Below, one piece after another: positions 5,566 through 59,539 of a stretch of DNA of 64,000 bases. The position numbers and the translations under genes were made by a program. Positions within the stretch are counted from its first letter, which is position 1. Each line of letters opens with the position of its first letter. The DNA is from an uncultured bacterium (GTDB lineage Bacteria > Chloroflexota > UBA5177 > JANWHV01), in the NCBI GenBank assembly GCA_963729625.1, contig CAVSOU010000010.1, forward strand, positions 1,088,001 through 1,152,000, written 5' to 3'. Under the pieces are notes generated by a model, which saw only the letters and a list, made by a program, of their open reading frames with translations, was not told the DNA's origin and made no database searches.

Positions 5566-6431
5566 GCACGACCGTGCTGGAAGCTCGACCGGCTGACGCG
5601 GTGCAACCCATGCTGCCCAGACCGTATGTCGTTGCGCGCGTGCACAAGGACACGGCGGACACGTTTACGCTCGAAATCCACTCGCTCGACGGCCAGGGTC
5701 TCGTCTACGCCCCCGGCCAGTTCACGATGCTCTACGCGTTCGGCGTCGGCGAGGTGCCGATATCGATCAGCGGCGACCCCGCCAAGACCGATCCATTGGT
5801 GCAGACGATTCGCGCCGTGGGTCCCGTGTCGAAGGCGCTTACCGATGTAAAGCGCGACGAGATGATCGGCGTGCGTGGCCCGTTTGGCAGTCACTGGCCG
5901 GTCGAGGAGGCCGTGGATCATGATGTGCTGCTCATGGCCGGCGGCATCGGCTTGGCGCCACTTCGCCCTGCCCTCTACTACTTGCTCGCGCACCGCGACC
6001 GCTTCCGGCGTATCACGCTCCTCTACGGGAGCCGCACGCCCGCTGATCTCCTCTACCGTCAGGAGCTGGAGCGCTGGCGCGGACGACTCGATCTGGACGT
6101 GTCTGTGACGGTCGACAACGCCACCACGACCTGGCCGGTGTGGCGCGGCGGTGTCGGCGTGGTCACCACGCTCATCCCAAGGGCGCACTTCGATCCGGAT
6201 TCCACGATCGCCATGATTTGCGGGCCAGACATCATGATGCGCTACAGCGCCAGGGATTTGCAACAGCTCGGCGTGAGCGCTCAGAAGATTTTTCTGTCCA
6301 TCGAGCTCAACATGCAGTGCGGTATCGGCCTGTGCGGTCACTGCCAGTTCGGACCGACGTTTGTTTGCAAGAATGGACCGGTCTACCGCCTCGACAAGGT
6401 GGCCCACCTGCTGGCGAAACGGGAGATTTGA
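5562..6431 (+). CDS. hyhG: Group 3b hydrogenase FAD/NAD(P)-binding gamma subunit
   Basis: [31 protein letters not shown] and the CGIGLCGHC...VCKNGPVY [2Fe-2S] motif; GTGA overlap with the previous gene. Confidence 0.92.
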
Positions 6432-6432
6432 G

Positions 6433-7212
6433 ATGGCACAACAACGCCTGCCCAAACTAGCAGTGTGGAAGTTCGCATCGTGCGACGGGTGCCAGCTCAG
6501 CCTTCTCGACTGCGAGGACGCGCTGCTCGCGGTGGCCGGACAGGTCCACATCGCCAACTTCCCCGAGGCGTCGCGCGCGGTCGCGCGCGGCCCATACGAT
6601 TTGTCCCTCGTGGAAGGGTCGGTGACGACGCCGCACGACGTGGTGCGTGTCAAGGAGGTTCGCCAGTCTTCGCGCTTCCTGGTGGCGATTGGTGCGTGCG
6701 CAAATTCCGGAGGTATCCAGGCGCTGCGCAACTTCAAGAACGTAAAGGAGTTCATCTCTACCGTCTACGCCAATCCCGAGTACATAGACACGTTAAGCAC
6801 GTCCACGGCGATCGCCGACCACGTTCCCGTCGACTTCGAGCTGCGAGGTTGTCCGATTAACAAACTCCAGCTCATCGAAGTGATTAACGCCTTCTTGAAC
6901 GGCCGCAGGCCAATCATCCCTGCGTACAGTGTCTGCGTCGAATGCAAGCTGCGTGGCACCCCGTGCGTGATGGTCTCGCAAGGTACGCCGTGTCTGGGGC
7001 CTGTCACGCAGGCCGGTTGCGGCAGTTTGTGCCCGTCATACAATCGCGGGTGTTTTGGCTGCTATGGGCCACAGGAGACGGCAAACACGACATCTCTGGC
7101 TCACTGCTGGGGCCAGCTGGGCGTAAGTGACAGCGGTATCATGCGCGTATTCCGCACGTTCAACGCCAATGCCGCGCCGTTCAGAGAAGAGAGTAGGGCG
7201 CATGAGCACTAG
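6433..7212 (+). CDS. hyhS: Group 3b hydrogenase small (delta) subunit
   Basis: [39 protein letters not shown] and CFGCYGP motifs; ATG lies one base after the gamma-subunit stop. Confidence 0.92.
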
Positions 7213-8491
7213 AACCATTCTGGTCGATCAACTGGCGAGGGTGGAGGGTGAGGGCGCTCTCACAATCCAGATCAAGGGCAACGTACTGCAGGACGTGAAG
7301 CTCCGCTTTTTCGAGCCGCCGCGTTTCTTCGAGGCGATGCTGCGTGGACGGTACTTTACCGAGGCGCCCGACATCACCGCACGCATCTGCGGGATCTGCC
7401 CGGTTGCGTATCAGATGTGCGCCGTGCAGGCCATGGAGGCTGCCTGCGGCGTCGAGGTGACTGGACCGTTGCGCGCGCTGAGGAGATTGCTCTACTGTGG
7501 CGAGTGGATCGAGAGCCACGCCCTGCATGTCTACCTCTTGCACGCGCCCGACTTTCTTGGCTATCAGGATGCCATCTCCATGGCCAAGGACCACGGCGAT
7601 GCGGTCAAGCGCGGCCTCCAGCTCAAGAAGGCCGGAAATGAAATTGTCAACGTCGTCGGTGGGCGCGAGATCCATCCAATCAACGTGCGCGTTGGTGGCT
7701 TCTACAAGGTGCCAACGCGAAAGGACCTGGCGCCCGTGCTCGAGCACCTCAAGTGGGCTCTCGATGCCGCGTTGGAAACTGTGAAATTGACCGCGGGCCT
7801 CACGTTCCCGGACCTGGAGTTCGATTACGAATTCGTGGGCCTCAGTCACCCGAATGAGTACGCGATCACCGACGGCCGCCTGGTGTCAAATCGCGGACTC
7901 GACATAGGCGTGCACGACTACGAGCTCCACTTCATCGAGGAACATGTCCGTCACTCAACTGCCATGCACTCGCGCATCCGCGAGCGCGGAGCGTATCATG
8001 TTGGCCCGCTCGCTCGCTACAATCTCAACTTCGATCGACTTTCCCCTCTGGCGCAGGACGCTGCGAAGAGCGCGGGGCTTGGACCCAAGTGCATCAATCC
8101 ATTCCAGAGCATCGTGGTCCGGGCTGTCGAGCTCGTGTATGCGTGCGAGGAAGCGATTCGGCTCATTGAGGACTACGACATGCCGGAGGCGCCGGCGATC
8201 AAGGTCGAGCCGCGCGCGGGCACTGGTTGTGCATGCACGGAGGCGCCGCGAGGCACGCTTTACCACCGGTACACCATCGACGAGCAGGGGATCATCCTGG
8301 ACGCCACGATCGTGCCGCCAACAGCCCAGAACCAGAAGACGATCGAGGGCGACCTGAGCCGCTTCCTCGCCACCCGCTTGGGCATGCCCGAGGATCAGCT
8401 TGTCTGGCAGTGTGAGCAGGCCGTACGCAACTACGATCCCTGCATCTCGTGTTCAACGCACTTCCTGCGACTCGAGATCGAGCGCGTGTGA
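7202..8491 (+). CDS. hyhL: Group 3b [NiFe] hydrogenase large subunit
   Basis: RVEGEG, L1 motif [16 protein letters not shown]2 motif DPCISCSTH followed by a 9-aa extension. Confidence 0.95.
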
Positions 8492-9605: not shown

Positions 9606-11348
9606 TTACCTGCGCACGATGACCGGGAGGATAAGGCGCGACGGATGCAGCCGATCGTGCCAGACGCGGTTGATTGCTTGCTGCACGTCGCTCTGTCGAT
9701 CCTCGGCTATCGCCCCGCCGCTATTCGTGTTGCGGTCGAACCGAGGAAAATTGCTGCTGGAGACCTCCAGCCGGATGCGATGCCCCGCCGCGAATAGGTT
9801 GGCGGTGGCGCCCACATTGATCGGCATCTCGTATACGGTTCCCGGGTCCATGAGTATCGGAGTCTGGAAGGACTCGCGGTAGCGGGCGCGCAGGATTCCA
9901 TCGGTAAGGATGGTGGCCGTCCCATCGGGCGAAACGTCGACCAGCTTCGCCGTGAAGTCGGTGTCGCGCGCCGTAGATGAACAGAACACGTGCAGCGTGA
10001 CCGGACCGATGACCTCAAGGGCGTGAGTGAGTGGAGGGGATGTGTAGCAGAGCACATCGGCGCGGAGCTCGACCGCACGTTGGTCGCGCGGACCTGAATT
10101 GGCCCCGACCCACAGTCCGGGCAGCAGGGTAGCTCCCCCGCAAGTCGGCACCGGTCGAAGGGGATCATACAGGTACACGTCGGGGTCTTCATCTGCCGGC
10201 ACATCGGTAGTGAGAGCCCCATCTCCGGCCAGGGAATTGGCGTTCCCGCCGCTGTGGAGGTAGTACGAGCGATACGTCGTATCCGGGAGCGGCCAGTCGC
10301 GTTCCTCACGCCAGGTATTGGCGCCCATAACGAATATGCGGACCGGTGCTTCGTGGCTGATCCCGTCGTCTATATCCTTAAGGATGTAATCAAACCACCG
10401 CAACTGAGCGCCGACAAGATCGACATTGACTGCTCGCGTGCCGGCTCGTGGCCCGAAGCTTTGCCAGGGGAACGTGTCCCCATCGACACCATGGGCCCAC
10501 GGTCCCATGATCAGCCGTTGACGGTTGCGGGCGTGAGCGCTTCCGCCCCGCGCCTTCATGCCGATATAGTTGGCCAGGGTGCCGTTCGCAAAGATGTCGT
10601 ACCACCCACCCATGTTGAGCGCTGGAACGGCGATCTGCTCATAATGCCTGCTAGGAGAGATCCGCTGCCAGAAGGCATCGTCTTCGGGATGCTGCAGCCA
10701 GGCGGCATAGTATGGGCTGAGTGATGCCAGCAACGGCATACCGCTGAGGGGAAATTGCTTGTACAGCGAATCAATGGCCCCGGTAGCATCCAGGACGCGC
10801 TCGCGGTCGTCCGGCGTCGCAGTGCCGCGATCGATTCTCCTGAGAGTCTCAGTCAGCGCGAATCCGAGCACCCATTGGAGCGTGAAGCCAAGCTCGAAGG
10901 CCCCGCCCTGGTAGGTCCAGCCTTCATAGTAGTCCGACGCGGTGACCAACGGCGCCATTCCGCACAGGGCGTGGTGTGCGCGGGTGGCGGCCAGCCACTG
11001 CGTGGCGCCGACGTACGAGGCGCCGAAAGTACCGATTCTGCCGCTCGACCATGGCTGCGTTTCCGCCCAGTCCATTGCTGCCGATCCGTCCTCCGCCTCG
11101 CGCACAAAGGGTGTGAATTCTCCCTCGGAGGCAAAGCGGCCGCGTGTGTCCTGGACGACCACGCAGTACCCCGCGCGGGCCATCCGCACGATGTCAGGTA
11201 TCGTCGAGTAGTCTTTATCATATGGCGTGCGCTGCAGCAGCACGGGCAGCGCTGCTTCGGTGCTTGGACGATAGATATCGGTTGCGAGGGCTACGCCGTC
11301 CGCCATCGGCACCATAACATTCTTCTGGATGAGGATACTTTCGGGCAC
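9606..11348 (-). CDS. CocE/NonD family hydrolase (peptidase S15 fold)
   Basis: LATDIYRP, RTPY, QDTRGRFASEG, nucleophile motif GASYVG, GGWYD, GPWAH and SSSNFPRFDRN. Confidence 0.93.
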   Translation of the reverse strand: MPESILIQKNVMVPMADGVALATDIYRPSTEAALPVLLQRTPYDKDYSTIPDIVRMARAGYCVVVQDTRGRFASEGEFTPFVREAEDGSAAMDWAETQPWSSGRIGTFGASYVGATQWLAATRAHHALCGMAPLVTASDYYEGWTYQGGAFELGFTLQWVLGFALTETLRRIDRGTATPDDRERVLDATGAIDSLYKQFPLSGMPLLASLSPYYAAWLQHPEDDAFWQRISPSRHYEQIAVPALNMGGWYDIFANGTLANYIGMKARGGSAHARNRQRLIMGPWAHGVDGDTFPWQSFGPRAGTRAVNVDLVGAQLRWFDYILKDIDDGISHEAPVRIFVMGANTWREERDWPLPDTTYRSYYLHSGGNANSLAGDGALTTDVPADEDPDVYLYDPLRPVPTCGGATLLPGLWVGANSGPRDQRAVELRADVLCYTSPPLTHALEVIGPVTLHVFCSSTARDTDFTAKLVDVSPDGTATILTDGILRARYRESFQTPILMDPGTVYEMPINVGATANLFAAGHRIRLEVSSSNFPRFDRNTNSGGAIAEDRQSDVQQAINRVWHDRLHPSRLILPVIVRR

Positions 11349-19252: not shown

Positions 19253-20308
19253 TCACCCGTACAGGCATTCTTCTCGAGCAGTCTCATACATGGCCAGGAT
19301 GTTGTCCAGCGGAACGTCTGGCAGCAGCGAATGGCTGCAGTTACAGACGTAGCCACCACCGGCGCCCAGATCCAGGAACCGCGCTCGCACTTCAGCCCGC
19401 ACATCTTCCGTGGTGCCAAATGGCAGGGTAGCCTGCACGTCGATTGCGCCGTGAAAAGCCAGCTGGTGACCGAAGCCGCGTTTCAGACCCGCCGGCTCCA
19501 TCCCCGTGGCGCCGACCTGAATTGGATTCAGCAGCTGCAGTCCCATATCGACTAGGTCAGGAATTATGGCACGGATCGCGCCATCGCTGTGAAGCATGAC
19601 GGTCACCCCATGTGACCTCGCGCATGCAAAGAGTCGCTCAAAGTGAGGGCGGACGAGCCTGCGCCACATTGCCGGATTGATCAACAGGCTCTGTTGCGTG
19701 CCGAAGTCGGAAACCATCATCACGATGTCCAGTTCCCCAGGCGCATAGGCGAAGAGACGATCCATGATCGTCTCATTGTAGGTGGTGACTCTGTCCATGA
19801 TCAGGTTCACCAGCTCGGGCGCGTCGTAAAGCCACGTGAAGAATTTCTCGAAGCCCACCATCTCGATTGCGTCGAAAAAGACGCGGCAATCAGGGCCGCC
19901 GAGCCGCGCGTGATCTCCTGCCTGCCGGCAGAGGTCCCGCCACGCCTCGACGTCGACTGCGTCGGGATCGGGCCAAGCGTGCGCCTCGACATCGGCCCTG
20001 GTGGCCGCGTGGGCGAGCGGGTGGTGGGACGTGTATCCACCGTAGGATCCGGAACGGCGAATGCCCCAGATATCTTCGGTCTCGCCTGATCGTAAGATCT
20101 TCGCCTTGCGGCCTCGATCGTGGTAGGGCACAGGGATACGACGCACATCCACGCCAAGCGCCTCGAGGACTGCCTCTTCGTCGACGACGTTCAGCCGGCG
20201 CTGCAATGCGACTGTAACTTCCGACTCGGCGAGGTAGTCCAGAGGCAGACGATCTGGGAGTTCATGTCCGACCGCCGCCATGACACGTTCGCGCGAATTC
20301 ATCGTCAT
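19253..20308 (-). CDS. URO-D/MtaA-CmuA family TIM-barrel protein (1)
   Basis: MNSRERV...PDRLP, DIWG, SDFGTQ, HSDG, NPIQ, GAIDVQATLPFGT and GGGYVCNCSH motifs. Confidence 0.88.
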   Translation of the reverse strand: MTMNSRERVMAAVGHELPDRLPLDYLAESEVTVALQRRLNVVDEEAVLEALGVDVRRIPVPYHDRGRKAKILRSGETEDIWGIRRSGSYGGYTSHHPLAHAATRADVEAHAWPDPDAVDVEAWRDLCRQAGDHARLGGPDCRVFFDAIEMVGFEKFFTWLYDAPELVNLIMDRVTTYNETIMDRLFAYAPGELDIVMMVSDFGTQQSLLINPAMWRRLVRPHFERLFACARSHGVTVMLHSDGAIRAIIPDLVDMGLQLLNPIQVGATGMEPAGLKRGFGHQLAFHGAIDVQATLPFGTTEDVRAEVRARFLDLGAGGGYVCNCSHSLLPDVPLDNILAMYETAREECLYG

Positions 20309-20935: not shown

Positions 20936-22111
20936 ATGAAGATCGCGCGCGTAGAGACCTACACCGTCGGTGTCGATTGGAAGAACTGGCTATTCGTGAA
21001 AGTGATCGCCGATGACGGCTTGCACGGCATCGGTGAGGCGACAATGAACGGCTTTGTCAAAACGACTGAGGCCGCGGTCCACGAGCTCGAGCATTTCGTG
21101 CTGGGAAAGGACCCCAGACAGATTGCCTCGCTGACGGGCACGCTGTTGGAGACCATGCAAGACGGCGGGCACATCCATCGGCTCGCCACTGCCGGCATTG
21201 AAGTGGCCTGCTGGGACATCCTCGGCAAGTCGCTTGGCGTGCCGATATACCAGCTGCTCGGTGGAAAGGTGCGCGACGACGTACCGGCCTACGCGAACGG
21301 CTGGTATCGCGGCGAGCGATCGCCTGAGACATTTCTTGCCCTCGCCGAGAAGGCGGTAGAAAAAGGGTTCCGAGCCCTGAAGCTCGATCCGTTCGGTCTC
21401 GCCCGCGCGACCATCGACGAGCAGAGCCTGCAGCTGGCCTACGACATTCTGCGAGCAATCCGCGACCGGTTCGGTCCGTCACTCAAGATCCTGATCGACG
21501 TGCATACCCGATTCCTGCCCAGCGAGGCGCTGCGCGTCGCGCGTCGCCTGGCGCCGCTCGATCTGTTCTGGTGGGAGGAACCGACCACGGCAGAGCGAGA
21601 GGAGCTGACCAACGAGATCGCTTCACAATGCCCTATACCGGTGGCGACAGGCGAACAGTTCGCCCGCGTCGGCAACTTCATGACGCTTGCCAGAGGCGGT
21701 CACGTCGGCATCTATCAGCCCGAGCCGATGTGTCTCGGCGGCATCTTGAACAGCCTGGCGGTTGCCAATATCGCCCGCGCCAGCGGCGCCACTATCGCTC
21801 CACACCAGAGCGGCGGGCCGGTCGCCACGGCGATATGTCTGCAATTGGCGGCATGCGTGCCGAACTTTTTGATCCAGGAGCACTTCGACCCCTTTAACGC
21901 GCCATGGACTCAAGACCTGGTTACCTGGCATCCGACGCTCAACAGGGATAACGGCCGTCTGTCGCTGCCGGAGGCGCCTGGCCTGGGCCTGGATCTGAAC
22001 CTGGATGTCGCGAGCGCCCACCCCTACGACGCGCGGTCGTTCTTCGACGCCACCAAAGAGGGATGGGAGAAGCGTTTGGGCACCCAGGCTGGTGCCGACC
22101 GGGTGGGATGA
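20936..22111 (+). CDS. Enolase superfamily acid-sugar dehydratase (galactonate dehydratase-like)
   Basis: GIGEA, WDILGK, YANGW, KLDPF, metal ligands DVH/EEP/GEQ, APH, QEH and PGLG. Confidence 0.9.
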   Translation: MKIARVETYTVGVDWKNWLFVKVIADDGLHGIGEATMNGFVKTTEAAVHELEHFVLGKDPRQIASLTGTLLETMQDGGHIHRLATAGIEVACWDILGKSLGVPIYQLLGGKVRDDVPAYANGWYRGERSPETFLALAEKAVEKGFRALKLDPFGLARATIDEQSLQLAYDILRAIRDRFGPSLKILIDVHTRFLPSEALRVARRLAPLDLFWWEEPTTAEREELTNEIASQCPIPVATGEQFARVGNFMTLARGGHVGIYQPEPMCLGGILNSLAVANIARASGATIAPHQSGGPVATAICLQLAACVPNFLIQEHFDPFNAPWTQDLVTWHPTLNRDNGRLSLPEAPGLGLDLNLDVASAHPYDARSFFDATKEGWEKRLGTQAGADRVG

Positions 22112-22278: not shown

Positions 22279-23118
22279 CTAGCCATCCTGCTTTGGAGCG
22301 GGCCAGGCCACATTGCCCGCCGCGTTCAGGGCCATGTTGCCGCCGTCCACATACAGCAGGTGGCCCGTGACGAATGCCGAGGCGTCGGACGCAAGGAACA
22401 GCGCGGGACCCACCAGATCCTCATCGTGGCCCATCCGACCGAGGGGAATGCCATTGAGAATGTGCTGCTCGAAGGCGACATAGTCCCAGGGCAAGCTCGT
22501 CATGCCCTTGATCCAGTTCTGATTCGCGATCTGGGCGGGCTGGATCGCGTTCACCCGAATGTGGTGCGGTCCCCATTCGACCGCCAGATCGCGGGTCATT
22601 TGATTGACTCCCGCCTTGGCCACGCCGTGCGGCAGATTGCCGCGTCCCATGCCGGAAAGACCGCAGGTCGAGCCGATATTGATGATGCTTCCGCCGGCGG
22701 CTCGCGCGATCATACGCTTCCCGGCCTCGATAGAACACAGGAAGGTGCTCGTCAGCGAGATGTCGAGGACGCGCTGCCACTCAGATAGCGGCAGCTCTTC
22801 CGGCCGGTAGCGCGCGCCCGCACCTACGTTGTTAATCAGAATGTCGATGCAGCCGAACTCGCGATCGAGGACGGCAAAGAGCGCCATGATATCCTCACGC
22901 CGGGCGTTATTGCAGGTGACGCCGACGCCGCGGCGCCCTAACGCTCGGATCTCCCGGCTTGTCTGCTCAGCGCCGGCCGCATCAACGTCGCTGACCAGCA
23001 CGTCCGCGCCGGCCTCCGCCAACCCAATCGCCATAGCGTGCCCTAGCCCGCCGTTCGCGCCGCCGCCGGTCACCAGCGCGACTTTCCCAGTGAGGTCGAA
23101 CCTCTCAGTACTCTTCAT
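22279..23118 (-). CDS. Short-chain dehydrogenase/reductase with HxxxK in place of YxxxK
   Basis: TGGGANGGLG, NNVG, IGS, PHGVAK, RVNAIQP and VDGG motifs. Confidence 0.9.
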   Translation of the reverse strand: MKSTERFDLTGKVALVTGGGANGGLGHAMAIGLAEAGADVLVSDVDAAGAEQTSREIRALGRRGVGVTCNNARREDIMALFAVLDREFGCIDILINNVGAGARYRPEELPLSEWQRVLDISLTSTFLCSIEAGKRMIARAAGGSIINIGSTCGLSGMGRGNLPHGVAKAGVNQMTRDLAVEWGPHHIRVNAIQPAQIANQNWIKGMTSLPWDYVAFEQHILNGIPLGRMGHDEDLVGPALFLASDASAFVTGHLLYVDGGNMALNAAGNVAWPAPKQDG

Positions 23119-23136
23119 TTCCGCGCCTCCAAGCAC

Positions 23137-24792
23137 CTACGGCTTGACAACCTTCAGCGGATCACGCTTGTGGATCAGCACGTCGCTGATCAGGACCATG
23201 GCCGCCCCGCTTACAGCCACCTCAAGCGCCTTCTGAAGCACCGCCACCGGATCCGTTATGCCGGCCTGCCACATCTCGACCACCTGGCCGGCGTTAGCGT
23301 CGAAGCCATGCCAGGGCCCGGCGGCACGAACCTGGGCAATAATCGCGTGCCGATCAAATCCAGCGTTGGCGGCCATGACCCCAATCGGTTCCTCCAGCGC
23401 GGCCTCCAGCGCTTGAAATGCGACGAGCTCATCGGCGGACCTCGCCACATCCTGGAGGGCGTGCTGGCAGCCGAGGTAGGCCGCGCCGCCACCAGGGACG
23501 ACCCCCGAGGCCAGGGCCAGTCTGAGTGCCGTGACGGTTCGCTGGGCCAATGCCTTGCGCGGCTTCTGTTCGCGCTCGCTATCGCCGCCAACGTACAGGA
23601 TGGCAACGCCCCCCATGAGCTTGCCCAGGCGCTCCCGTACCTGCTCTCGCTCCTCCGGTTTGTCCGTTTCGGCCAGCTCGGCTTTCACCCCCGCGATTCG
23701 CCGGCGCAGTGCCATGGGGTCGGCATCGCCGCCATGCACGCCGAAATTGGCGGAGTTCGCCCACACGTGGTTGGCGCGACCGAGGTCGTCAAGGCTGAAG
23801 CTCGCCGCGCGCTCCCCGCTCGCCTCGCTCAACACCCGGCCACCCGACAGCACTGCCAGGTCCTCGAGAATTCGCGCTCGATTGTCACCCTGCGCCGGCG
23901 CGCGGACGGCCACGCAGTGCAGCGTCCCCTGGCGATGATTCGCAACCAGGAGACTCAGTGCGCTGCCACTCACTTCATCCGCGATCACGAGCAGACCTGG
24001 ACAATGTGCGGCCACGAGACGATCCAGAAGCGGTACAAGCTGGTCGGCATCGGTGAAGTGCAGGTCACTGATCAGGATCATGGGGCCGTCAAGCCGCACT
24101 TCCTGCTTGTCCTCATCGGTAATGAAATACGGAGAAAGATACCCTTCGTTCCAGTGGACGCCCTCCACATAGTGCCGGACCAGCCCGGGAGCGTAACCAT
24201 TCTCCACAAGCAAGCACCCGTCGGCGCCAATGATGTCGAGAATTTCGCCCAGCATCTTCGCCAGCGCAGCATCGTGGCACACGGTCTCCGCGGCGCCGGC
24301 AATCTCGACAGGCCCGTGTAGTGGCCTGCTCTGTTTGCCCAGGGCATTCGCGACCAAGCAGAGCCCTCGCTCTAGGCTCCGTCGCACGACAAGCGGATCG
24401 CCGCCCGCCGCGATGTATGGCTCTGCGTGACTGACTATCGCTTGCAGCAACACAGCGGTGGTCGCACCGCCGTCGCCTACCGTGTCGTATGTCTTCCACA
24501 CTGCGTGGCGGAGCATCATTGCTCCCATGTTCACGTAGGGATCGGGCAGCTCAATCACTCGCCTCAGAATCGTAGCGGCATCGTCGAGCACCTCGATCGG
24601 CCGCCCAGAATTGACATCCTCCACGGCAACCGTACGCGGAAGCGGCCCCAAGGTTGGCCGGACCGCAGCCACCATGGCCGCGATGCCGCGGCGCATGGCG
24701 CCCCGCGCTGCTGGCCCGTGGAGAATTCCGGGGCCGATTCCTGAATCCGGTACGGGCCTCGCTACTCTCTGCGCCAGTAACCGTCGAGACAT
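23137..24792 (-). CDS. Divergent chaperonin-60 (GroEL-like) paralogue
   Basis: TLGP, NMGA, GDGGATT, GYLSPYF, LEDLAVLSGG, ERLGKLMGGVA, GVVPGGG and GITDP align collinearly with GroEL; no GGM tail; no adjacent groES. Confidence 0.92.
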   Translation of the reverse strand: MSRRLLAQRVARPVPDSGIGPGILHGPAARGAMRRGIAAMVAAVRPTLGPLPRTVAVEDVNSGRPIEVLDDAATILRRVIELPDPYVNMGAMMLRHAVWKTYDTVGDGGATTAVLLQAIVSHAEPYIAAGGDPLVVRRSLERGLCLVANALGKQSRPLHGPVEIAGAAETVCHDAALAKMLGEILDIIGADGCLLVENGYAPGLVRHYVEGVHWNEGYLSPYFITDEDKQEVRLDGPMILISDLHFTDADQLVPLLDRLVAAHCPGLLVIADEVSGSALSLLVANHRQGTLHCVAVRAPAQGDNRARILEDLAVLSGGRVLSEASGERAASFSLDDLGRANHVWANSANFGVHGGDADPMALRRRIAGVKAELAETDKPEEREQVRERLGKLMGGVAILYVGGDSEREQKPRKALAQRTVTALRLALASGVVPGGGAAYLGCQHALQDVARSADELVAFQALEAALEEPIGVMAANAGFDRHAIIAQVRAAGPWHGFDANAGQVVEMWQAGITDPVAVLQKALEVAVSGAAMVLISDVLIHKRDPLKVVKP

Positions 24793-24878
24793 GTGGCCAA
24801 CTCGCACTTTCCAACTGTCGGGGCCGCACGCGCCGCTACCCGACCATCAAATCCTGGCTACGTACGTAGCCGTCACAC

Positions 24879-25047: not shown

Positions 25048-25809
25048 CTAGCCTTCGCCGATGAACGTTCCGAAATCACCAACGGCCGGGCCGGCGAAGG
25101 TGCCCGTGTATTTGGTAATGCCTACCGCATGCTTGCTCGACGCGACCAGCATCAGAGCGCCAGACTTGGACCAGAAGATGGTAGACGTGACATTACCGTT
25201 TACAACACGACCCTCGGCCGGAAGCACCGTGTCATTGCTCAGGAAGGCGAAGGTACCGTCACCCCATCCATCGGCAGTCAGCTGAAGCGTCAACTGCCCG
25301 GCCAGGGCCAGCGTATCCGCGCTACCCATGCCGCTCTTCCCGCCAATGCTGAAGGTCACTTCCTGGGTCTCAGGTGTTAGCGCCCACGAACCGGCGCTGG
25401 TGTTCGCGCCCAGCGCAACCATACCGCCCCAAACGCCGGACATCTTGTTCAGCAGCTTGCCGGTCAAGCTCATGGTGCCGGCCTTGCCTTTCACCGCGAG
25501 CTGTGCAGTGTCAGCGGCCGTGCCACTGACTGTCGACGTTGCACCGCTGGCCAGAGTTAGCGTTGCGGTGAGGAGGCCTGTGCTGTTGATCGTGCCGGCG
25601 ACCTGGCCCGCGACCATCGCGCCGGCGCTCGGACCCGCCAGGAGTTGCGCCGCCAGATGGAAGGCTACCGGGCTTTCCGTCACCGCCGCTTGGCTGCTGG
25701 AAGCAAATGTGCGGGGAGCGATGCTACCACCAAGAATGGTGGCGCAGACAAGGACGAAGCCTAGTATGGTCTTTCGCATCACTGACGAGGGTAATCGTAC
25801 ACTGATCAT
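25048..25809 (-). CDS. Secreted hypothetical beta-rich protein
   Basis: AAGGAG RBS; signal peptide MRKTILGFVLVCATILGGSIAPRTFA; Gly/Thr/Ala-rich alternating beta pattern. Confidence 0.75.
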   Translation of the reverse strand: MISVRLPSSVMRKTILGFVLVCATILGGSIAPRTFASSSQAAVTESPVAFHLAAQLLAGPSAGAMVAGQVAGTINSTGLLTATLTLASGATSTVSGTAADTAQLAVKGKAGTMSLTGKLLNKMSGVWGGMVALGANTSAGSWALTPETQEVTFSIGGKSGMGSADTLALAGQLTLQLTADGWGDGTFAFLSNDTVLPAEGRVVNGNVTSTIFWSKSGALMLVASSKHAVGITKYTGTFAGPAVGDFGTFIGEG

Positions 25810-26067: not shown

Positions 26068-26985
26068 TTAAAACTTCATCCCGGTCATGGCGACGCCACG
26101 GATCATGTACTTCGATCCGAAGAGATAGGCCACCATCAGGGGAATTGACGACAACACGCCCGCCGCGATCAGATAGTCGTACCGCGTGATAAACAATCCC
26201 TGCAGACCGCTAAGGAACAACGGCAGCGTTTGGTTACTCGGGCTGGTCAGCACCACGAAGGGCCAGAGGTAGTCGTTCCAGACCCCGAGAAAGATGAAGA
26301 TACCCAGCGCCGCCGCGGGCGAGGCGGAGAGAGGGACCACGAGCTGAGCAAAGATACGCCACTCCGAGGCGCCGTCGATGCGGGCGGCCTCGATCAGCTC
26401 CGTCGGAATGCTTAGCATGAACTGGCGCATCATGAAGATGCCAAAGGTGGAGAAGAAACCGGTCACGATCACCCCGGCCAGGCTGTCTGAAAGCCCCCAG
26501 TCGCTAATCCTGATGTAAAGAGGCACCAGGATGACGACGAAGGGCACCATCAGCGTGGCGAGCAGCAGCACAAAGAGCAGATCCTTGCCGGGAAAGTGAT
26601 ACTTTGCGAATACGTACCCGGCCATGGTCGAGGTGAGAACCGAAACGCTCGTGACGCTCGCCGTCACGATGACCGTATTTCGGAAGCCCGTCCACACGCC
26701 TGAAAGGCCTGTCACGTACTGGTACGCGTCCAGCGTCCAGTGCTTTGGAAACAAAGCACGGGACTCCATGAGCTCCTTGAATGCTTTGAACGAGCCGAAC
26801 ACTGCCCAGATCAGGGGAGCCAACGCTATCAGTACACCAACTGTCAGCACCAGGTAGATCGCGACCTGCCCCGTGCGGAGATGCACATGCCGCCTCCCTG
26901 CCGGCATGGGTGCCGGCATTGGGACGTCATGAGCGCCCGGCAATCGGTCAGAAGGGCGAGCTACGAGCATTGGCTCTCGTTCCAT
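26068..26985 (-). CDS. Carbohydrate ABC transporter permease (MalG-like)
   Basis: ELIEAARIDGASE, WNDYLWP and six TM segments. Confidence 0.93.
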   Translation of the reverse strand: MEREPMLVARPSDRLPGAHDVPMPAPMPAGRRHVHLRTGQVAIYLVLTVGVLIALAPLIWAVFGSFKAFKELMESRALFPKHWTLDAYQYVTGLSGVWTGFRNTVIVTASVTSVSVLTSTMAGYVFAKYHFPGKDLLFVLLLATLMVPFVVILVPLYIRISDWGLSDSLAGVIVTGFFSTFGIFMMRQFMLSIPTELIEAARIDGASEWRIFAQLVVPLSASPAAALGIFIFLGVWNDYLWPFVVLTSPSNQTLPLFLSGLQGLFITRYDYLIAAGVLSSIPLMVAYLFGSKYMIRGVAMTGMKF

Positions 26986-26991
26986 CCAGTC

Positions 26992-27927
26992 CTAATACGA
27001 CCACTGCATCCGTGTCAAGCGCAGGGTCATCAGCGTGAGCACCAGGGTGATAGCAAACTCGATCAGCGCGGCGCTGGAGGCCACGCTGAACTGGAAGTTC
27101 TGGAATGCCAGATCATAGATGTAAAGGTTTAGGGTCAGCGTCGCGTTGGCTGGCCCGCCACCGGTCAAGACCTGCGGGATCGTGAACTCCTGCAACGCCC
27201 CAATCACACCAAGGATCACCACGAGATTGATGGTCGGCTGCACGAGGGGCAGAGTGATGTGACGCAAGCGCGCCCAATCGCCCGCCCCGTCGATCCGTGC
27301 CGCATCGATCAACTCGCTCGGAATGTTGAGAAGCCCCGCTGTCAGGATGACAATCGTGACCCCCAGGCCCTTCCACGTGCCAAAAAGCGCGGAACTGGGA
27401 AGGGCAGCGTTGCCATCGGTCAGGAACCCAGACGTGGGCAAGTGCAAGAAGCTCAAGAAGCCGTCGATCGGTCCGACCACTGGATCCATCAGGTACTTGG
27501 CAATCAGAATGGTGGACAGGAGGGGCACGACGACAGGCACGAACACCAGACCCTGGAGCAGGTTGCGCCCGTGCGCGACGTTTGCCAGGCAGAGCGCTAT
27601 CGCCAGCGCCAGCGGGATACCGACCAGAACGGTGATCGCTCCCCATTCGACGCTGTTCTTCAGCGCAGTACCAAAGAGCGGATCGTCAAACAGCTCCCGG
27701 AAATTGTCCAGTCCGACGTATCGGCCTGGTCCGAGCAGGCGGTAATGAATCAGGGCGATGCGGAACGCCTGGATCACCGACCAGAACGACACCACGGAGT
27801 ACCAAGCGAGCAAAGGGACAAGTATGGCAAAACCAAACCAGAATTGGGGCCTTTGCAGCACTCTGCCGATCTGGTAGACGAGTCCCCTCCTTCGGAACGC
27901 TATCACCCCCGCACCGTTTCGGTCCAT
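26992..27927 (-). CDS. Carbohydrate ABC transporter permease (MalF-like)
   Basis: YVGLDNF, WKGLG, ELIDAARIDGA and LTGGGP motifs. Confidence 0.93.
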   Translation of the reverse strand: MDRNGAGVIAFRRRGLVYQIGRVLQRPQFWFGFAILVPLLAWYSVVSFWSVIQAFRIALIHYRLLGPGRYVGLDNFRELFDDPLFGTALKNSVEWGAITVLVGIPLALAIALCLANVAHGRNLLQGLVFVPVVVPLLSTILIAKYLMDPVVGPIDGFLSFLHLPTSGFLTDGNAALPSSALFGTWKGLGVTIVILTAGLLNIPSELIDAARIDGAGDWARLRHITLPLVQPTINLVVILGVIGALQEFTIPQVLTGGGPANATLTLNLYIYDLAFQNFQFSVASSAALIEFAITLVLTLMTLRLTRMQWSY

Positions 27928-28036
27928 GCCAACCCTCTCGGATGATACTTGTCCACACTGGCCGCCTGCTCGACGGCACGGAGCTCCCTGGCACGCCATG
28001 GTGGCTCCGTGCGCCAGCGGTCGCCCTCAGCATCTG

Positions 28037-29464
28037 CTAGAGGTTTGCGAGATCATTCTGATACTGTTTGTACTGCGCCTCGGCCAGGGTCTGGATGGCC
28101 TGCGCGCCCTGCGCAGCGGTCATCTTGCCCAGCCGAACCGACTGGGACGAGCTGACGATGGCATCGATGATCTTGTTGTAGTAGCCAACCTCGCCGATAT
28201 GCTTGCAAGTCTCGTACATGGTCCTGACTTGCGGAATGCCGTCCACCTGATACGTCGCGTTCGTGGAGTACGGCTTGGCGAAGCGAGATATGTCGTGGTC
28301 GAGAATCGGCTTCCAGGCGACAATGGCCACACCACCATAGATCCGGTCATAGATTATCTGGCCGGCATACGAGCATACCAGTCGCAGGAAGGCATCCGCC
28401 GCGTTCGGGCTATGGGCCTTGGAGGACTCAACCAGGCCCCACCCCTGTCCGGAACCCACCGCGACCGGCACGTTACCGTTCACCTTCGGGCTGCCGGAGA
28501 TCTGGAAGTCGTAACCCAGCGCGGGACCAAAGATCGAGGCTGACCCGTTGGTCAGGCTGATCGCGCATTCGCCCTTCAGCGCCACGTTCTCCACGGCAAT
28601 GTTGTCACCCCATTCGCGCTCGATCCCCATCTTGACAGGGGTCTCTACGTGGAGCTTCATCGCCTCGACGCCGGCCGGAGAATTATAGTTGAACTTCTTG
28701 GTTGCAGGATCGAATACAGGCGTACCCTGGGTCTCGATGAGCATGTTGATGGCCGCATCGTCCCAGCCCTCGCCGCACAGGCCGTAACGGGTGACTTTGC
28801 CGCCGGACGACGCTTGCAGCGCCTTGGCTAGCTTGAACAGCTGGTCATAGCTGTCGAACCAGAACGACCCGTTCGTGGGCGGATACTGGCTGGCCAGGCC
28901 CGCTGCCTTGACCAGGTCGACCCGCACGTTGCAGAACGAGCCCAGACCGCCATCGCATTCCAGCGGCACACCATAGATTTTGCCGCGCCATGAGAACTCG
29001 TCAACCCCATCGCCGACAATATCGCGAGATATGACGATATGGTTGGCGTCGTATACGTTGCTCTTGATATCCTTCAAGGCGCCTTGGGCGGCGAGCAGCG
29101 TGAGGTTCTGGCCGGTGTTCGCACAGATGTCGGGCTGCGTACCCGCGGCGGTTGCGGCAATGAACTTGGTAGCGACAATCGCCGAGTTCAGGGCCGCCGC
29201 TGCTTGCGGTCTGAGGGAGATAGTCGTCCCCGTCTGCTTCTTGAATAGAGCAATTTGCTCGTTGAAGGCATTGATGTGGGGCTGCCACAGCATACACCAC
29301 ATTGTCGCTGTGGATTCGAGGCTTGCCGCACGTACCGCCGCCGGGGCCGCCTCGGCTACCGATTTGACGCCTGCCTCGAGACCGGTGGCCACGGCCATGC
29401 CGGCGCCAACCGTTCCTGCCGCAGCCTTAAGAAAATCACGCCTACTCGTTGGCCTTGCACTCAT
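28037..29464 (-). CDS. Sugar ABC solute-binding protein with Tat signal
   Basis: SRRDFLK, AAGTQPDI and GKIYGVP motifs; upstream of two permeases. Confidence 0.9.
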   Translation of the reverse strand: MSARPTSRRDFLKAAAGTVGAGMAVATGLEAGVKSVAEAAPAAVRAASLESTATMWCMLWQPHINAFNEQIALFKKQTGTTISLRPQAAAALNSAIVATKFIAATAAGTQPDICANTGQNLTLLAAQGALKDIKSNVYDANHIVISRDIVGDGVDEFSWRGKIYGVPLECDGGLGSFCNVRVDLVKAAGLASQYPPTNGSFWFDSYDQLFKLAKALQASSGGKVTRYGLCGEGWDDAAINMLIETQGTPVFDPATKKFNYNSPAGVEAMKLHVETPVKMGIEREWGDNIAVENVALKGECAISLTNGSASIFGPALGYDFQISGSPKVNGNVPVAVGSGQGWGLVESSKAHSPNAADAFLRLVCSYAGQIIYDRIYGGVAIVAWKPILDHDISRFAKPYSTNATYQVDGIPQVRTMYETCKHIGEVGYYNKIIDAIVSSSQSVRLGKMTAAQGAQAIQTLAEAQYKQYQNDLANL

Positions 29465-29623
29465 AGCATTCAACTCCTCTGTGAGGTTCCAGTGTGATGA
29501 CTAAGTGCTAACGATTCCCGTAGGCAGCCGGCTCCTCTCTCTTCACCTCCTACCACTCAGCCCGACCGTCGCAAATGGGCAGCCGAGGCGCCTTCCAACT
29601 CTGACGAGACTGGAACGCATTTC

Positions 29624-36347: not shown

Positions 36348-37625
36348 ATGACACTCACGTCTCGCGCGCGCGTTGAGCTGGCGCTGCAGCATCAGGAATC
36401 GGATCGCGTCCCTCTTGACCTCGGAAGCAATACCGAAACCGGGATGCACGTGTCTTCCGTGTACAGGCTGCGGCAGGCTCTTCGACTTGACCCACCGGGC
36501 ACGCCCGTCAGAGTAGTCCAGCCGTACCTGATGCTCGGCGAGATCGGTCATGACCTGGTCGACGTGCTGGGCGTCGACGTCGTCGGCCTGGGCTTGCCGA
36601 CCACGTCGGTCGGCTTCAAGAATGAAGGGTGGAAGCCCTGGACCACGTTTGACGGCACGCCGGTGTTGGTTCCGGCAGGCTTCAACACGGAGCCGGCCCC
36701 AAACGGCGACATACTGATGTATCCGTGCGGCGACAGGTCCGTGCCGGCCTGCGCGCGGATGCCCAAAGGTGGTTTCTATTTCGATGCCATTAGCCGACAG
36801 GCGCCTATCGACGACGACAAGCTGAACGTGGACGACAACCTTGAAGAGTTCGGCGAAATCAGCGACGACGATCTCTCTCACCTGCAACGGGAGAGCGCGC
36901 GATTGGCGGCGACCGGCAAGGCAATCATGGCAAACTTCGGCGGCACGTCGTTTGGGGATATCGGGACGGTGCCAGGGCTCAAGCTGAGACATCCAAAAGG
37001 CGTACGCGATGTCGAGGAATGGTACATCAGCCTTAACTCGCGACGGGACTACATCTACAACGTCTTCGAACGGCAGCGCGACATCGCGCTGAAGAATCTC
37101 GAGAAGATTCACCATGTTGTGGGCGATAGTGTTACTGCCGTTCGCGTGACGGCAGCGGACTTTGGGGCGCAGCAGGGTCCCTTCATCGGGCCAAAGACGT
37201 ACAGAGCTCTCTTCAAGCCGTTCCACGTGCGAGTCAACGACTGGATTCACGCCAACACATCCTGGAAGTGCGTCATTCACTCATGCGGATCAATCTGGCG
37301 ACTGCTTGACGACATCGTGGATGCTGGCTTCGATGCGTTGAATCCGGTGCAGACTTCCGCTGCAGAGATGGACCCGGCGATGCTAAAGCGGCGCTATGGT
37401 GACCGGCTCACCTTTTGGGGCGGAGGAATCGACACGCAGCACGTTCTTCCGTTCGGCACGCCGGACGAGATTCGCGAGATGGTTCGAGATCGCATGCGGA
37501 TTTTTGCTCCCGGAGGCGGCTTTGTATTCAACACCATACACAACGTGCAAGCAGGCATACCTGCGGCCAATCTGCTGGCGCTCTACCAGGCAGTGGAAGC
37601 GTATCGGTCATACCCGGTTGACTAG
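36348..37625 (+). CDS. URO-D/MtaA-CmuA family protein, long type (2)
   Basis: SRARV...DRVPLDLG, ADFGAQ, HSCG, NPVQ, FWGGGIDTQHVLPFGT and NTIHNVQ motifs. Confidence 0.88.
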   Translation: MTLTSRARVELALQHQESDRVPLDLGSNTETGMHVSSVYRLRQALRLDPPGTPVRVVQPYLMLGEIGHDLVDVLGVDVVGLGLPTTSVGFKNEGWKPWTTFDGTPVLVPAGFNTEPAPNGDILMYPCGDRSVPACARMPKGGFYFDAISRQAPIDDDKLNVDDNLEEFGEISDDDLSHLQRESARLAATGKAIMANFGGTSFGDIGTVPGLKLRHPKGVRDVEEWYISLNSRRDYIYNVFERQRDIALKNLEKIHHVVGDSVTAVRVTAADFGAQQGPFIGPKTYRALFKPFHVRVNDWIHANTSWKCVIHSCGSIWRLLDDIVDAGFDALNPVQTSAAEMDPAMLKRRYGDRLTFWGGGIDTQHVLPFGTPDEIREMVRDRMRIFAPGGGFVFNTIHNVQAGIPAANLLALYQAVEAYRSYPVD

Positions 37626-37685: not shown

Positions 37686-38930
37686 CTAAAGTTCGGACAC
37701 GACGGTTGTGGCGTCAGGGCGTCGTCGCACGTCTGGCAGCAGGGCCGTGCCCAACCCCGGCCCGGTCGGTGCGAGTATGTGACCGCCCTCCACGATTATG
37801 GGCTCGGTCACCATCTCGGGGTACGTGACATGCAGATAGGCCCGCACCGTCTCCTGATAGACTGCATTCGTCGCATTGATTGCCAGGTGGATGCCCGCCA
37901 TCATGGTGAAGGGACCGGTGCAATCGTGGAAGGCGACAGGGCGTCGATATGCTTCCGCCATCGTGGCAATCTTCTTGCTTTCGGTGATACCGCCCGCCCA
38001 GGTCGGATCAATCATGACAATGTCGACCGCTTGTTGCTCGAATAGCGCCTTGAACTCGTAGCGCGTCGTCAAGAACTCGCTGGCCAGGATAGGGGTGGAG
38101 GTGCTCCGCCGCAGCTCCGCGAGAGAGGAGATGTCGTCAGCACGCATCAGGTCTTCGAGCCATGCCGGCTGGAACTCTTCCACGGCGCGTGCGATGTGCT
38201 TCGCCGCCGGAAGCGACCAGAGACCATGCCCTTCTAGCATGATGTCCATCTTGTTGCCTACCGCGGCGCGGATTTTGCGAAACGGCTCCAGCCCGCGCTC
38301 GAGATCGCCCTCGTCGATGCGCTGGCCGCCAAGGGTGCGCAGCGCCGGGTCGAAGGCGCCGCGAAAGTCGCGCCACTTGTCCCAGGAACCTGGCGCGTGC
38401 ACGCCGGGATCGAAGGGCCAGATTTTCATCCCCGTAATGCCCTCTGCCAACAGGTCGAGCGCGAGCTCGTCGGCCCGCGTCATGAAGGCAATCAGGTCTT
38501 CGTAGCGGCCTGCACTTTCCTTCAGCGTGCCGCCGAGCGTGGACCGTCCATAGGCCGGGCCGCCACAGGTGTTGTAGGTCTTGATGCGATCGCGGGCCGC
38601 GCCCCCGAGCAACTGCCACACCGGCATGCCGGTGGCCTGACCGAATATGTCCCACAACGCTACGTCGAGCGCGGACAGCCCGCGGATCTCCGCGCCCTTA
38701 CCGACAATATGCGTAATGATCTCGTAGAGCCGGCGCCAATGCAGTTCGATCGCCAGGGGGTCGTGGCCCAGCAGCAGCGGCGCCGCAAACCTGTGGATAT
38801 ATCCACGCACGGCGTCCGGCATGTAGAAGGTGTCGGAATAGCCGACGAGCCCCTCGTCGGTGTGCACGGCGATGAAGAGGATATGCGGGTAGTCGGCCAG
38901 ATGGATCGTCTCGATCTTGGTCAGCTTCAT
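37686..38930 (-). CDS. Mandelate racemase/enolase superfamily protein (probable dehydratase)
   Basis: DVALWDI, YNTC, KIWPF, ligands EGH/WLED/ASE, HDCTG, QET and PGLG. Confidence 0.9.
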   Translation of the reverse strand: MKLTKIETIHLADYPHILFIAVHTDEGLVGYSDTFYMPDAVRGYIHRFAAPLLLGHDPLAIELHWRRLYEIITHIVGKGAEIRGLSALDVALWDIFGQATGMPVWQLLGGAARDRIKTYNTCGGPAYGRSTLGGTLKESAGRYEDLIAFMTRADELALDLLAEGITGMKIWPFDPGVHAPGSWDKWRDFRGAFDPALRTLGGQRIDEGDLERGLEPFRKIRAAVGNKMDIMLEGHGLWSLPAAKHIARAVEEFQPAWLEDLMRADDISSLAELRRSTSTPILASEFLTTRYEFKALFEQQAVDIVMIDPTWAGGITESKKIATMAEAYRRPVAFHDCTGPFTMMAGIHLAINATNAVYQETVRAYLHVTYPEMVTEPIIVEGGHILAPTGPGLGTALLPDVRRRPDATTVVSEL

Positions 38931-38971
38931 TGTTCTCTCTCCCATCGTTCACGCATTGACCGCTCCGGGCG

Positions 38972-39973
38972 TCAGACCACGGATATGCCCTCGTTTGCAA
39001 AACGCCAACCGGATAAATTGCTGGTCGACCGAAGCACGCCACTCTCCGCGAGGCCCGCCAACACGAGGCTGTTGGCCGGGAATGTCGGTGCTACGGCGAT
39101 GCACAGGACGCCCGAAGCCTCCACGCGGCGCGACCAGGTCTCCCCCCCATCGTGCGAGACGCATACATCGGAATCGGTGGCCATCAGCATCGTGTGGTCA
39201 TCACCAAAGCCGGGCGAGAGCACGATGGCGTTGACACTGACCTCGCCCAGCCCCGGCGCCAGCGGTTGCCACGTGACGCCGCGATCTCGCGAGCAGAACA
39301 AGCCGGCTCCCTCCGTGCCGGCGAAGAGAGTATCGTCAGCGCTGAAGTCTGGCGAGATGGCCAGGCATTGCACGGCGACGCCTTCCGCGGGCGTGCCTAT
39401 CTCGCGCCAGGCCCGCGCGCCATTCGGACTGCGAAATATGCCCGTGGCTGTGGCCGCGAACAGCGTTTCGTCCTGCTCGAACGCCGGAGACACTGCCAGC
39501 GACAGCACGTCAAGATCGAGGAGTCCAAAGGTGCCGGTCTCCCACCTCCCACCTCCGTTTCGCGAGACGAGCACACCGCCGGACATGACCGCGGCGAACG
39601 CCACCCCATCGCGCGCAAAGGCGGGCGACACGGCAATCGCGGCAAACCCGCCCGCACGCCTTGGCAGATCGGCCACGGACCATTCCGCTCCGTCGCCGAT
39701 TACGCGATAGAGGCTGCCTTCCAGGCTTGCCGCGAGAAGCACCCGATCGTGACTGAAACCAGGGGAAATCGCCAGGGCGCTGAGGGACGGCTTCCCGCTA
39801 TCGGGGCCTACAGGCCGCCAGGTTCGCCCAGCGTCGGTCGAGGTGAAGAGGCCGGCAAGGGTGGCCGCAAACGCCGTTTGATCGTTGTCGAAGTTCGGTG
39901 ATAGCGCGATGGCAGTGACGCTGGCGGCCGGTGGCGCTGCCATGAGTTCCGGGTTGCTTTCAGTTTCCGACAT
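38972..39973 (-). CDS. Cytoplasmic seven-repeat BNR/Asp-box beta-propeller protein
   Basis: Seven AxSPxFxxD repeats, several followed by S-x-D/N-x-G-x-x-W Asp-boxes; no signal peptide. Confidence 0.85.
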   Translation of the reverse strand: MSETESNPELMAAPPAASVTAIALSPNFDNDQTAFAATLAGLFTSTDAGRTWRPVGPDSGKPSLSALAISPGFSHDRVLLAASLEGSLYRVIGDGAEWSVADLPRRAGGFAAIAVSPAFARDGVAFAAVMSGGVLVSRNGGGRWETGTFGLLDLDVLSLAVSPAFEQDETLFAATATGIFRSPNGARAWREIGTPAEGVAVQCLAISPDFSADDTLFAGTEGAGLFCSRDRGVTWQPLAPGLGEVSVNAIVLSPGFGDDHTMLMATDSDVCVSHDGGETWSRRVEASGVLCIAVAPTFPANSLVLAGLAESGVLRSTSNLSGWRFANEGISVV

Positions 39974-48238: not shown

Positions 48239-48260
48239 AGTACTCTCCAGTGCTCGACCG

Positions 48261-59527: not shown

Positions 59528-59539
59528 CGATGACGACTC

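Follow-up and report, generated by a model that had tools for sequence, protein, structure and literature searches.

GroEL is the textbook ATP-driven folding machine capped by GroES, with TIM barrels enriched among its obligate clients, and the eukaryotic CCT/TRiC, a group II hetero-oligomer that has its own lid and an active ATPase, acts on WD40 propellers such as G-beta. Several departures from the GroEL scheme have been described. The E. coli variant GroEL D398A binds ATP normally and retains 3% of the ATPase, and encapsulation and folding persist in it (PMC3326522). Many genomes carry groEL genes that stand alone (770 of 4,861; PMC5406781). The chlamydial GroEL2 and GroEL3 are presented in the available text of a review of atypical type I chaperonins as diverged stand-alone paralogues outside the groES operon and heat-shock control (PMC5904260), and the mycobacterial Cpn60.1 and other non-essential paralogues are described as second copies with a non-GGM C-terminus and a proposed special role (PMC5904260, PMC13673040). 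The same portion of the review names five phyla with multiple chaperonins, Chloroflexota not being one of them (PMC5904260). The present analysis concerns a diverged GroEL/Cpn60 paralogue of 551 amino acids, encoded at 23137..24792 on the minus strand of a 64,000-nt stretch (hereafter the window) of contig CAVSOU010000010.1 from an uncultured member of the Chloroflexota (lineage UBA5177; JANWHV01), the source assembly consisting of 21 contigs and being 87% complete. The protein belongs to a chaperonin family with an apparently remodelled ATP site, whose genes are frequently paired with that of a seven-bladed beta-propeller; no literature describing this family was found.

The gene starts with an ATG at 24792, ends with a TAG stop at 23139-23137 and is free of internal stops over the full 551 amino acids, in agreement with the initial annotation, which had called it full-length and uninterrupted and had omitted the strand. 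The match to Pfam Cpn60_TCP1 (PF00118) was only 143 bits; the NCBIfam GroEL subfamily model NF009487 was passed with 424.7 bits against a cut-off of 352, and the cut-off of the GroEL equivalog TIGR02348 was missed (399.4 against 582.1 bits). Solved GroELs aligned with the protein from end to end in HMMER (E-values of about 1e-100 to 1e-80, 31–35% identity), the identity to the canonical GroEL of its own genome was even by domain (equatorial 0.35, intermediate 0.29, apical 0.37) and the nearest protein-atlas clusters were Chloroflexota Cpn60. The AlphaFold2 (AF2) model, built from 72 family sequences, had the three-domain Cpn60 fold with a predicted local distance difference test (pLDDT) score of 91.2 and a predicted template-modelling (pTM) score of 0.86. 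In Foldseek it matched the Thermus Cpn60 cis ring 4v4o with a template-modelling (TM) score of 0.90 and a root-mean-square deviation of 2.1 Å, as well as the other GroES-bound, nucleotide-bound rings 8wuc, 5opx and 3wvl, and apo GroEL with a TM score of only about 0.60; this GroES-bound-like shape carries no weight as a sign of a locked state. Membership in two other chaperonin groups was rejected: the models of chlamydial GroEL2/GroEL3 (NF038370, NF038369) gave 142.8 and 160.5 bits, where 600 are required, and those of group II/III (thermosome/CCT-like) proteins gave at most 59.4 bits against cut-offs of 400–800, with the match confined to the C-terminal part.

The substitutions that the initial annotation had read by manual alignment reappeared both in the HMMER alignment with solved GroELs and in the MAFFT alignment with the canonical GroELs of the same genome. 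TLGPKGRN is replaced by TLGPLPRT (GPKGR to GPLPR, with L51-P52), T-K/N-D-G by L69-D70-D71-A72 (TKDG to LDDA) and GDGTTT by G106-D107-G108-G109-A110-T111 (GDGGAT), and the segment KALAQRTVTA sets R418 opposite the catalytic aspartate of VEDAL, so that the Arg proposed at Asp398 is indeed there. By count along the alignment this aspartate is D396 of the solved chain 9rwr_A, which corresponds to D398 in the E. coli numbering used here. The residues of the nucleotide pocket are all present (T30-P33, D87, G414-416 and D495; G434-436 and D514 in the protein's own numbering). The apical GYLSPYF is intact, as annotated, and the hydrophobic residues of the apical helices H and I are also retained, while the GGM tail is missing, again as annotated, the C-terminus being ...IHKRDPLKVVKP; ...HKRDPLKVVKP. 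The protein resembles GroEL D398A in its group I fold, nucleotide pocket and apical groove, with the catalytic Asp398 absent in both; the difference is that the change in the family is natural, leads to Arg, is fixed in a whole clade and is accompanied by changes at positions 34, 35, 50, 51, 89 and 90. In contrast to E. coli GroEL, the window protein has no GGM tail and its gene no groES and no CIRCE (controlling inverted repeat of chaperone expression) element; the protein closes instead with a short, conserved basic stretch whose last residue is Pro. Judging from these alignments, the family retains the nucleotide- and client-binding parts and replaces the ATP-hydrolysing ones, a pattern that speaks for a remodelled rather than a decayed site.

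The same pattern was found throughout the relatives of the protein. A homologue search over 5.8 billion proteins, in which 8000 candidates were scored, yielded at least 1731 matches at E≤1e-20, and the altered motifs were carried by all of the best 120 of them, with identities from 77% down to 43%. Residues were counted over 112 rows of at least 480 amino acids from the alignment of close homologues. T30, G32 and P33 were kept in all 108 non-gap rows, and the remaining pocket positions were almost as constant: D87 in 107 of the 112 rows, T91 in 104, N479 and D495 in 111 each, and G88, G414 and G416 in every row. The positions of the canonical Lys34 and Gly35 were occupied mostly by Leu (41/112) or Thr (38/112) and by Pro (76/112) or Ala (25/112), respectively, T50 was replaced by Leu in 111, K51 by Asp in 108 and T90 by Ala in 104 of the 112 rows. 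At position 398 there were 91 Arg, 11 Asp, 4 Ala, 3 Gly, 2 Glu and 1 Thr. A GGM-like tail occurred in none of the 112 rows, and 93 ended in Pro after a short basic stretch. The window protein carries the complete signature, i.e., LGPxPR, L50-D51, GDGxAT, a replaced Asp398, no GGM tail and a C-terminal Pro. Since the pocket residues are almost invariant, nucleotide is probably still bound by the family, which argues against the ATP-independent action suggested in the initial annotation. Matches with a named organism all came from Chloroflexota (6 of 6 proteins in the homologue search and 4 of 4 clusters), and the public labels of the family members were only 'chaperonin GroEL' or 'hypothetical'.

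To sample the wider family, 1.84 billion cluster representatives were searched with the family profile, and the best 150 at 50% identity, all with at least 484 bits, were taken. Among the 137 representatives of 450–640 amino acids, position 398 was occupied by Arg in 66, Asp in 25, Gln in 13, Ser in 10, Ala in 8, Lys in 6, Asn in 4, Glu in 3, and Gly and Thr in one each; Asp398 was therefore absent in 112 of the 137, and only 10 had a canonical-looking KG/TTT/D site. D87 was retained in 134 of 138, and about 20 of the 66 Arg398 representatives had also lost Asp52. Tandem proteins of about 1080 amino acids with two Cpn60 modules (P0242, P0244) also belong to this wider family, and among P0242, P0244, P0293 and P0382 there were one fusion of a caspase domain with Cpn60 and one of Cpn60 with CHAT.

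When 145 sequences were placed in a FastTree phylogeny with a canonical copy as the root, the family formed a ladder leading from canonical sequences through clades with TTT and Asp398, clades with TAT and Asp, and sequences with Ala or Phe at 398 to an Arg398 crown, albeit with a support of only 0.63 for the whole family versus four canonical-like copies and with a ladder shape that can reflect rate effects. The crown clade comprised 95 tips, 93 with Arg and two with Gly at 398 (support 0.94), and the window protein and its congeners formed a subclade inside it (support 1.0). A basal clade is represented by the locus L053 (G213:C1:953000-971000; L numbers denote loci of the family), whose chaperonin has LGPKART, GDGTTT, Asp398 and a tail ending in NVNP, with groES 1.3 kb upstream, a DUF2752 gene between the two and no adjacent propeller gene; such a clade may be an intermediate stage.

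Nei-Gojobori ratios of non-synonymous to synonymous substitution rates (dN/dS) of the window gene were 0.129, 0.124 and 0.186 against orthologues of 75, 73 and 64% amino acid identity, respectively, with dS values of 1.3–1.6 that are near saturation; these values indicate purifying selection. The selection that the initial annotation had read from the open frame thus has independent backing, the ratios being far from 1. Likewise, Asp398 was not retained on proper alignment, and D398R and GDGGAT, whose conservation it had proposed to check, proved to be clade-wide and not private to this genome. With its frame intact and dN/dS at 0.12–0.19, the gene would therefore encode a repurposed rather than a decaying chaperonin, as had been proposed, and the clade-wide substitutions point in the same direction.

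Six Cpn60 genes were found dispersed in the assembly: three canonical ones, each by a groES, one near-canonical stand-alone copy and two diverged copies. The absence of groES noted in the initial annotation holds for the whole window, in which there were no Cpn10 genes, and the three groES of the genome all adjoin canonical groEL genes elsewhere. The same is true of the absence of CIRCE: a scan with the CIRCE consensus gave no sites with up to 4 mismatches in the window and none near the three Cpn60 copies without groES, in contrast to sites with 2–3 mismatches upstream of all three canonical groES operons. The near-canonical fourth copy (C10:512618-514225, L048) has a canonical ATP site (KG/TTT/Asp398) without groES, GGM tail or CIRCE, and stands alone between DUF2089 and MarR genes; in the tree its branch falls between those of the canonical copies and the diverged family. 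The second and more diverged GroEL-like gene (G000:C10:713037-714677, L047) has GDGSAT, Arg at 398 and VPGAG, and its stop overlaps by 4 nt the start of a gene for a 596-amino-acid BNR propeller (locus to 716452); solute-binding protein and permease genes precede this pair, and DUF2961, SnoaL, enolase, URO-D and amidohydrolase genes follow it.

A propeller gene proved to be the only neighbour with a fixed position and orientation relative to the chaperonin. Eighteen other family loci were inspected by Pfam and/or tblastn, some of them akin to one another (L054/L055 and L060/L061 come from the same genus each, L049/L050 and L052/L062 from the same genome each). In 11 of the 18 (L012, L047, L049, L050, L051, L054, L055, L056, L057, L058 and L062) the propeller gene immediately followed that of the chaperonin on the same strand, and in one further locus (L059) it was one gene off. 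In a phylum sample of 300 Chloroflexota genomes, including four unpublished ones, 34 loci in 32 genomes reached at least 380 bits against the window protein, a cut of our own, chosen to exceed the 348 bits that the canonical copies of the source genome score. The propeller gene was directly downstream in 10 of these 34 loci, one gene off in one and 14.3 kb off in another (G190), and two further loci ended with their contig. Of the 32 genomes with a family chaperonin, 26 also encoded a propeller homologue (E≤1e-15), compared with 44 of the 268 others. In addition, the longest contig had the same length for both partners in six pairs of chaperonin and propeller matches. The pairing is thus frequent, although not constant. 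In the window the two genes are apart: the propeller is encoded at 38972..39973 on the minus strand, and the closest relative, L012, has both genes side by side, with a chaperonin and a propeller 75 and 58% identical to those of the window, making the window a case of a pair split by rearrangement with both genes retained.

The window propeller, the proposed partner or client of the chaperonin, is a cytosolic BNR/Asp-box protein of 333 amino acids without a signal peptide, with six clear repeats and one degenerate repeat of about 46 amino acids. Its AF2 model (pLDDT 91.4, pTM 0.91) has seven four-stranded blades, and Foldseek found likenesses to GH74 xyloglucanase halves, Ycf48 and WD40 proteins including G-beta, the similarity to G-beta and WD40 structures amounting to TMq values of 0.65–0.73. 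Public homologues are labelled 'photosystem II stability/assembly factor-like'. Residues 148–154 (N-F-G-L-L-D-L) form a confidently modelled non-repeat loop between blades 3 and 4, which was near-invariant among 64 sequences and is a candidate interaction site. An enolase-superfamily (MR_MLE) gene follows 26 nt downstream of the propeller gene (37686..38945, minus strand), and the same gene family adjoins the chaperonin-propeller pairs in L047, L058 and L062.

A chaperonin tied to a seven-bladed propeller recalls CCT/TRiC; here the tie is genetic only, and the window protein is a group I derivative (60 bits at most with the thermosome/CCT models). To our knowledge, neither loss of Asp398 or GDGTTT nor a conserved propeller neighbour is a feature of mycobacterial Cpn60.1-type paralogues. 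The chlamydial GroEL2/GroEL3 belong to another phylum, and the available text of the review reports no propeller partner for their genes (PMC5904260).

The explanation that we favour, with a probability of roughly 55%, is that the window protein is a functional GroEL offshoot which binds nucleotide, is impaired in hydrolysis, acts independently of GroES and serves a dedicated propeller client or partner. The three-domain fold, the nucleotide pocket and the hydrophobic apical groove are kept, and the losses comprise the catalytic carboxylate (Asp398, now Arg), a portion of the phosphate loop (GAT for TTT), Lys34/Gly35, the GGM tail, the linked groES and the CIRCE heat-shock control. Since the binding parts are kept, the hydrolysing parts are replaced and D398A still binds ATP and folds, the most economical reading of the protein appears to be a slow- or non-hydrolysing, nucleotide-gated chaperonin without a GGM tail, linked groES or heat-shock control. 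Nucleotide binding, with very slow or no hydrolysis, may drive the capture of one client, presumably the propeller, which would then be held or folded, or bound in a lasting complex with the chaperonin. Such action would be comparable to single-turnover GroEL D398A and analogous to that of eukaryotic CCT on WD40 propellers. The gene linkage suggests that the chaperonin serves one propeller within sugar-utilisation loci: the sugar and sugar-acid utilisation setting in which it would act (ATP-binding cassette (ABC) importer, short-chain dehydrogenase/reductase (SDR), enolase superfamily) was found in the window and, in similar form, in L012, L047, L049, L050, L054, L058 and L062. Through local rearrangement the propeller orthologue of the window now lies 14.2 kb upstream, and an SDR gene follows the chaperonin.

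Several observations weigh against this explanation. The window propeller gene is 14.2 kb upstream of the chaperonin gene and not directly downstream of it, where the SDR gene follows instead, and no word of 9 nt or more was shared between the upstream regions of the two genes. The propeller was not found in the examined stretch of 6 of the 18 loci (L013, L046, L052, L053, L060 and L061), and 20 of the 34 sampled loci were not adjacent to it, nine of these coming from the one basal genus with GDGTTT, Asp398 and groES 1.3 kb upstream (L053). In six of the 32 genomes with a family chaperonin a propeller was missing at E≤1e-15. Five complete genomes of another family (f19) contained 20 chaperonin matches, none of them within 100 kb of a propeller among the propeller matches listed, and no chaperonin-propeller fusions occurred among 13 long family representatives. 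Moreover, related genomes in the linkage and co-occurrence tallies are not independent of each other. Finally, an impaired ATPase need not imply a new function, because folding by E. coli GroEL is not done away with by the loss of Asp398 alone.

Among the rival explanations the one that survives best, although still unlikely, is an ordinary extra chaperonin, which would hydrolyse ATP through compensating residues, use one of the three GroES of the genome in trans and take part in general folding under specific conditions. The conserved pocket and apical groove, the latter binding GroES in canonical GroEL, would agree with this, as would the GroES-bound-like AF2 model and the commonness of stand-alone groEL genes (PMC5406781). 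However, throughout the clade other residues stand in place of Asp398 and in part of the phosphate loop, with Asp52 lost as well in about 20 of the 66 Arg398 members, the GGM tail and CIRCE are missing, the score is below the GroEL equivalog cut-off, and a fixed linkage to one gene family is unexpected for a generalist.

Second in rank, and likewise doubtful, is a role as holdase, cage or scaffold that would stabilise the catabolic, often TIM-barrel, enzymes of the island (enolase-superfamily, DHDPS-type and others), an idea already contained in the initial annotation. Enolase-superfamily genes do recur near family members (in the window at 20936-22111 and 37686-38945, and in L047, L058 and L062), as do SDR genes (window, L012, L013, L049 and L058), and a DHDPS gene stands after the L013 chaperonin. 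Nevertheless, the genes 3' of the chaperonin vary among the three closest orthologues: an SDR gene in the window, a propeller-S15-SDR series in L012 and a DHDPS-Ldh_2-SDR-SDR series in L013. Catabolic enzymes are wholly missing at several family loci (L051, L052, L057 and L060), and such enzyme families are abundant genome-wide, whereas the propeller alone keeps its position and orientation. The suggestion of TIM-barrel clients was therefore not upheld, the recurrent neighbour being the seven-bladed BNR propeller.

Less credible than either is a mixed-ring subunit, joined with the canonical GroELs or with the second diverged paralogue and having a non-hydrolysing regulatory or specificity role in the manner of chloroplast Cpn60 alpha/beta; six Cpn60 genes in the genome and the tandem two-module proteins of the wider family would permit it, but the other Cpn60 genes are neither in nor near the window and the paralogues are dispersed. 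We rate no higher a bolder version of the partnership, in which the propeller is a built-in ring partner rather than a client: having pseudo-sevenfold symmetry, it would fit the sevenfold axis of a heptameric chaperonin ring and might cap or plug that ring instead of GroES, with the non-hydrolysing site as a switch, and its loop N148-F-G-L-L-D-L154 could then be the docking element. If this is true, Chloroflexota sugar-utilisation loci would encode a chaperonin-derived machine of two proteins that has so far been unknown. A decaying or non-functional copy, as the lost catalytic residues and the low Pfam score for a GroEL (143 bits) might suggest, is very improbable in view of the intact frame, the replacement residues conserved across a large clade and the confident AF2 model, and the pseudogene reading was rejected on the dN/dS of 0.12–0.19 against three orthologues.

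Should the nucleotide-binding, hydrolysis-impaired chaperonin with a dedicated propeller be confirmed, it would stand for a large natural family in which the pocket and the client groove are kept and the catalytic Asp, GroES linkage, GGM tail and heat-shock control are given up. It would provide a bacterial case of a client- or partner-dedicated chaperonin tied to one propeller protein, as well as a natural experiment on what a chaperonin can do by nucleotide binding alone. Because public annotation calls the family members simply 'chaperonin GroEL', folding capacity is probably overestimated when it is counted from Chloroflexota genomes. The added value of the window itself is modest: it contributes another member of the family, with the chaperonin-propeller pair split.

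On the minus strand the order of the genes around the chaperonin is solute-binding protein, permease, permease, a 253-amino-acid protein, a hairpin, the chaperonin, an 18-nt spacer and the SDR gene. The spacer (23119..23136, minus strand) contains GGAGG and separates the chaperonin stop from the SDR ATG at 23118, exactly the distance given in the initial annotation, and the SDR gene (22279..23118, minus strand) is probably co-transcribed with the chaperonin. Its product is an orthologue (67%) of the second SDR of L013, which itself is encoded 3.3 kb downstream of the L013 chaperonin. Upstream, a terminator-like hairpin of 17 pairs with a T-rich tail (24920-24883, minus strand), recognised as a consensus match only, occupies a spot at which a hairpin of the same kind was also found before the orthologues in L012 and L013. 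Because this hairpin parts the chaperonin from the upstream ABC-transporter genes, the chaperonin and the SDR gene look like a transcription unit of their own within a catabolic island. Of the earlier description as embedded in a catabolic operon, the catabolic island setting stands, but probably not a single operon with the ABC-transporter genes.

Between the hairpin and the chaperonin start, at 24856-24871, there is a perfect 16-bp palindrome, GGCTACGTACGTAGCC, which occurs nowhere else in the genome and could serve as a local operator; it was not conserved upstream of the orthologues and has no status as a family feature. The 253-amino-acid protein (25048..25809, minus strand), encoded once in the genome, has a hydrophobic signal-like N-terminus and belongs to no known family, with no matches in Pfam, NCBIfam or the protein atlas. 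Both of the closest orthologous loci have a conserved counterpart immediately before the chaperonin gene (64% identity to L013:1168-2004, and readable in L012 in frame +1). Further upstream lies a binding-protein-dependent ABC importer without an ATPase gene (26068..29473, minus strand), syntenic with L012 and composed of two permeases (26068-26985 and 26992-27999) and a solute-binding protein with a twin-arginine translocation (TAT) signal (28037-29473), all on the minus strand; the solute-binding protein, both permeases and the chaperonin are 73–77% identical to their L012 counterparts. An orthologue (68%) of the L012 S15 peptidase is encoded at 9606-11348, and the local region has evidently been rearranged, because the orthologues of the L012 propeller and S15 peptidase are scattered in the window (38972-39973 and 9606-11348).

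Two further features of the window were noted. Seven URO-D/MtaA-like paralogues are encoded within the 64 kb (19253-20308, 36348-37625, 43970-44962, 45892-47034, 47117-48298, 58253-59569 and 61735-62226), an unusually dense expansion mixed with genes for 2-hydroxyacid dehydrogenases, enolase-superfamily, DHDPS-family and SDR proteins and GntR/FCD regulators. Unrelated to the chaperonin, a plus-strand cluster at 4360-8491 encodes Fer4_22, NAD_binding_1/DHODB Fe-S and NiFeSe hydrogenase large-subunit-like domains and may be a soluble [NiFe] hydrogenase module.

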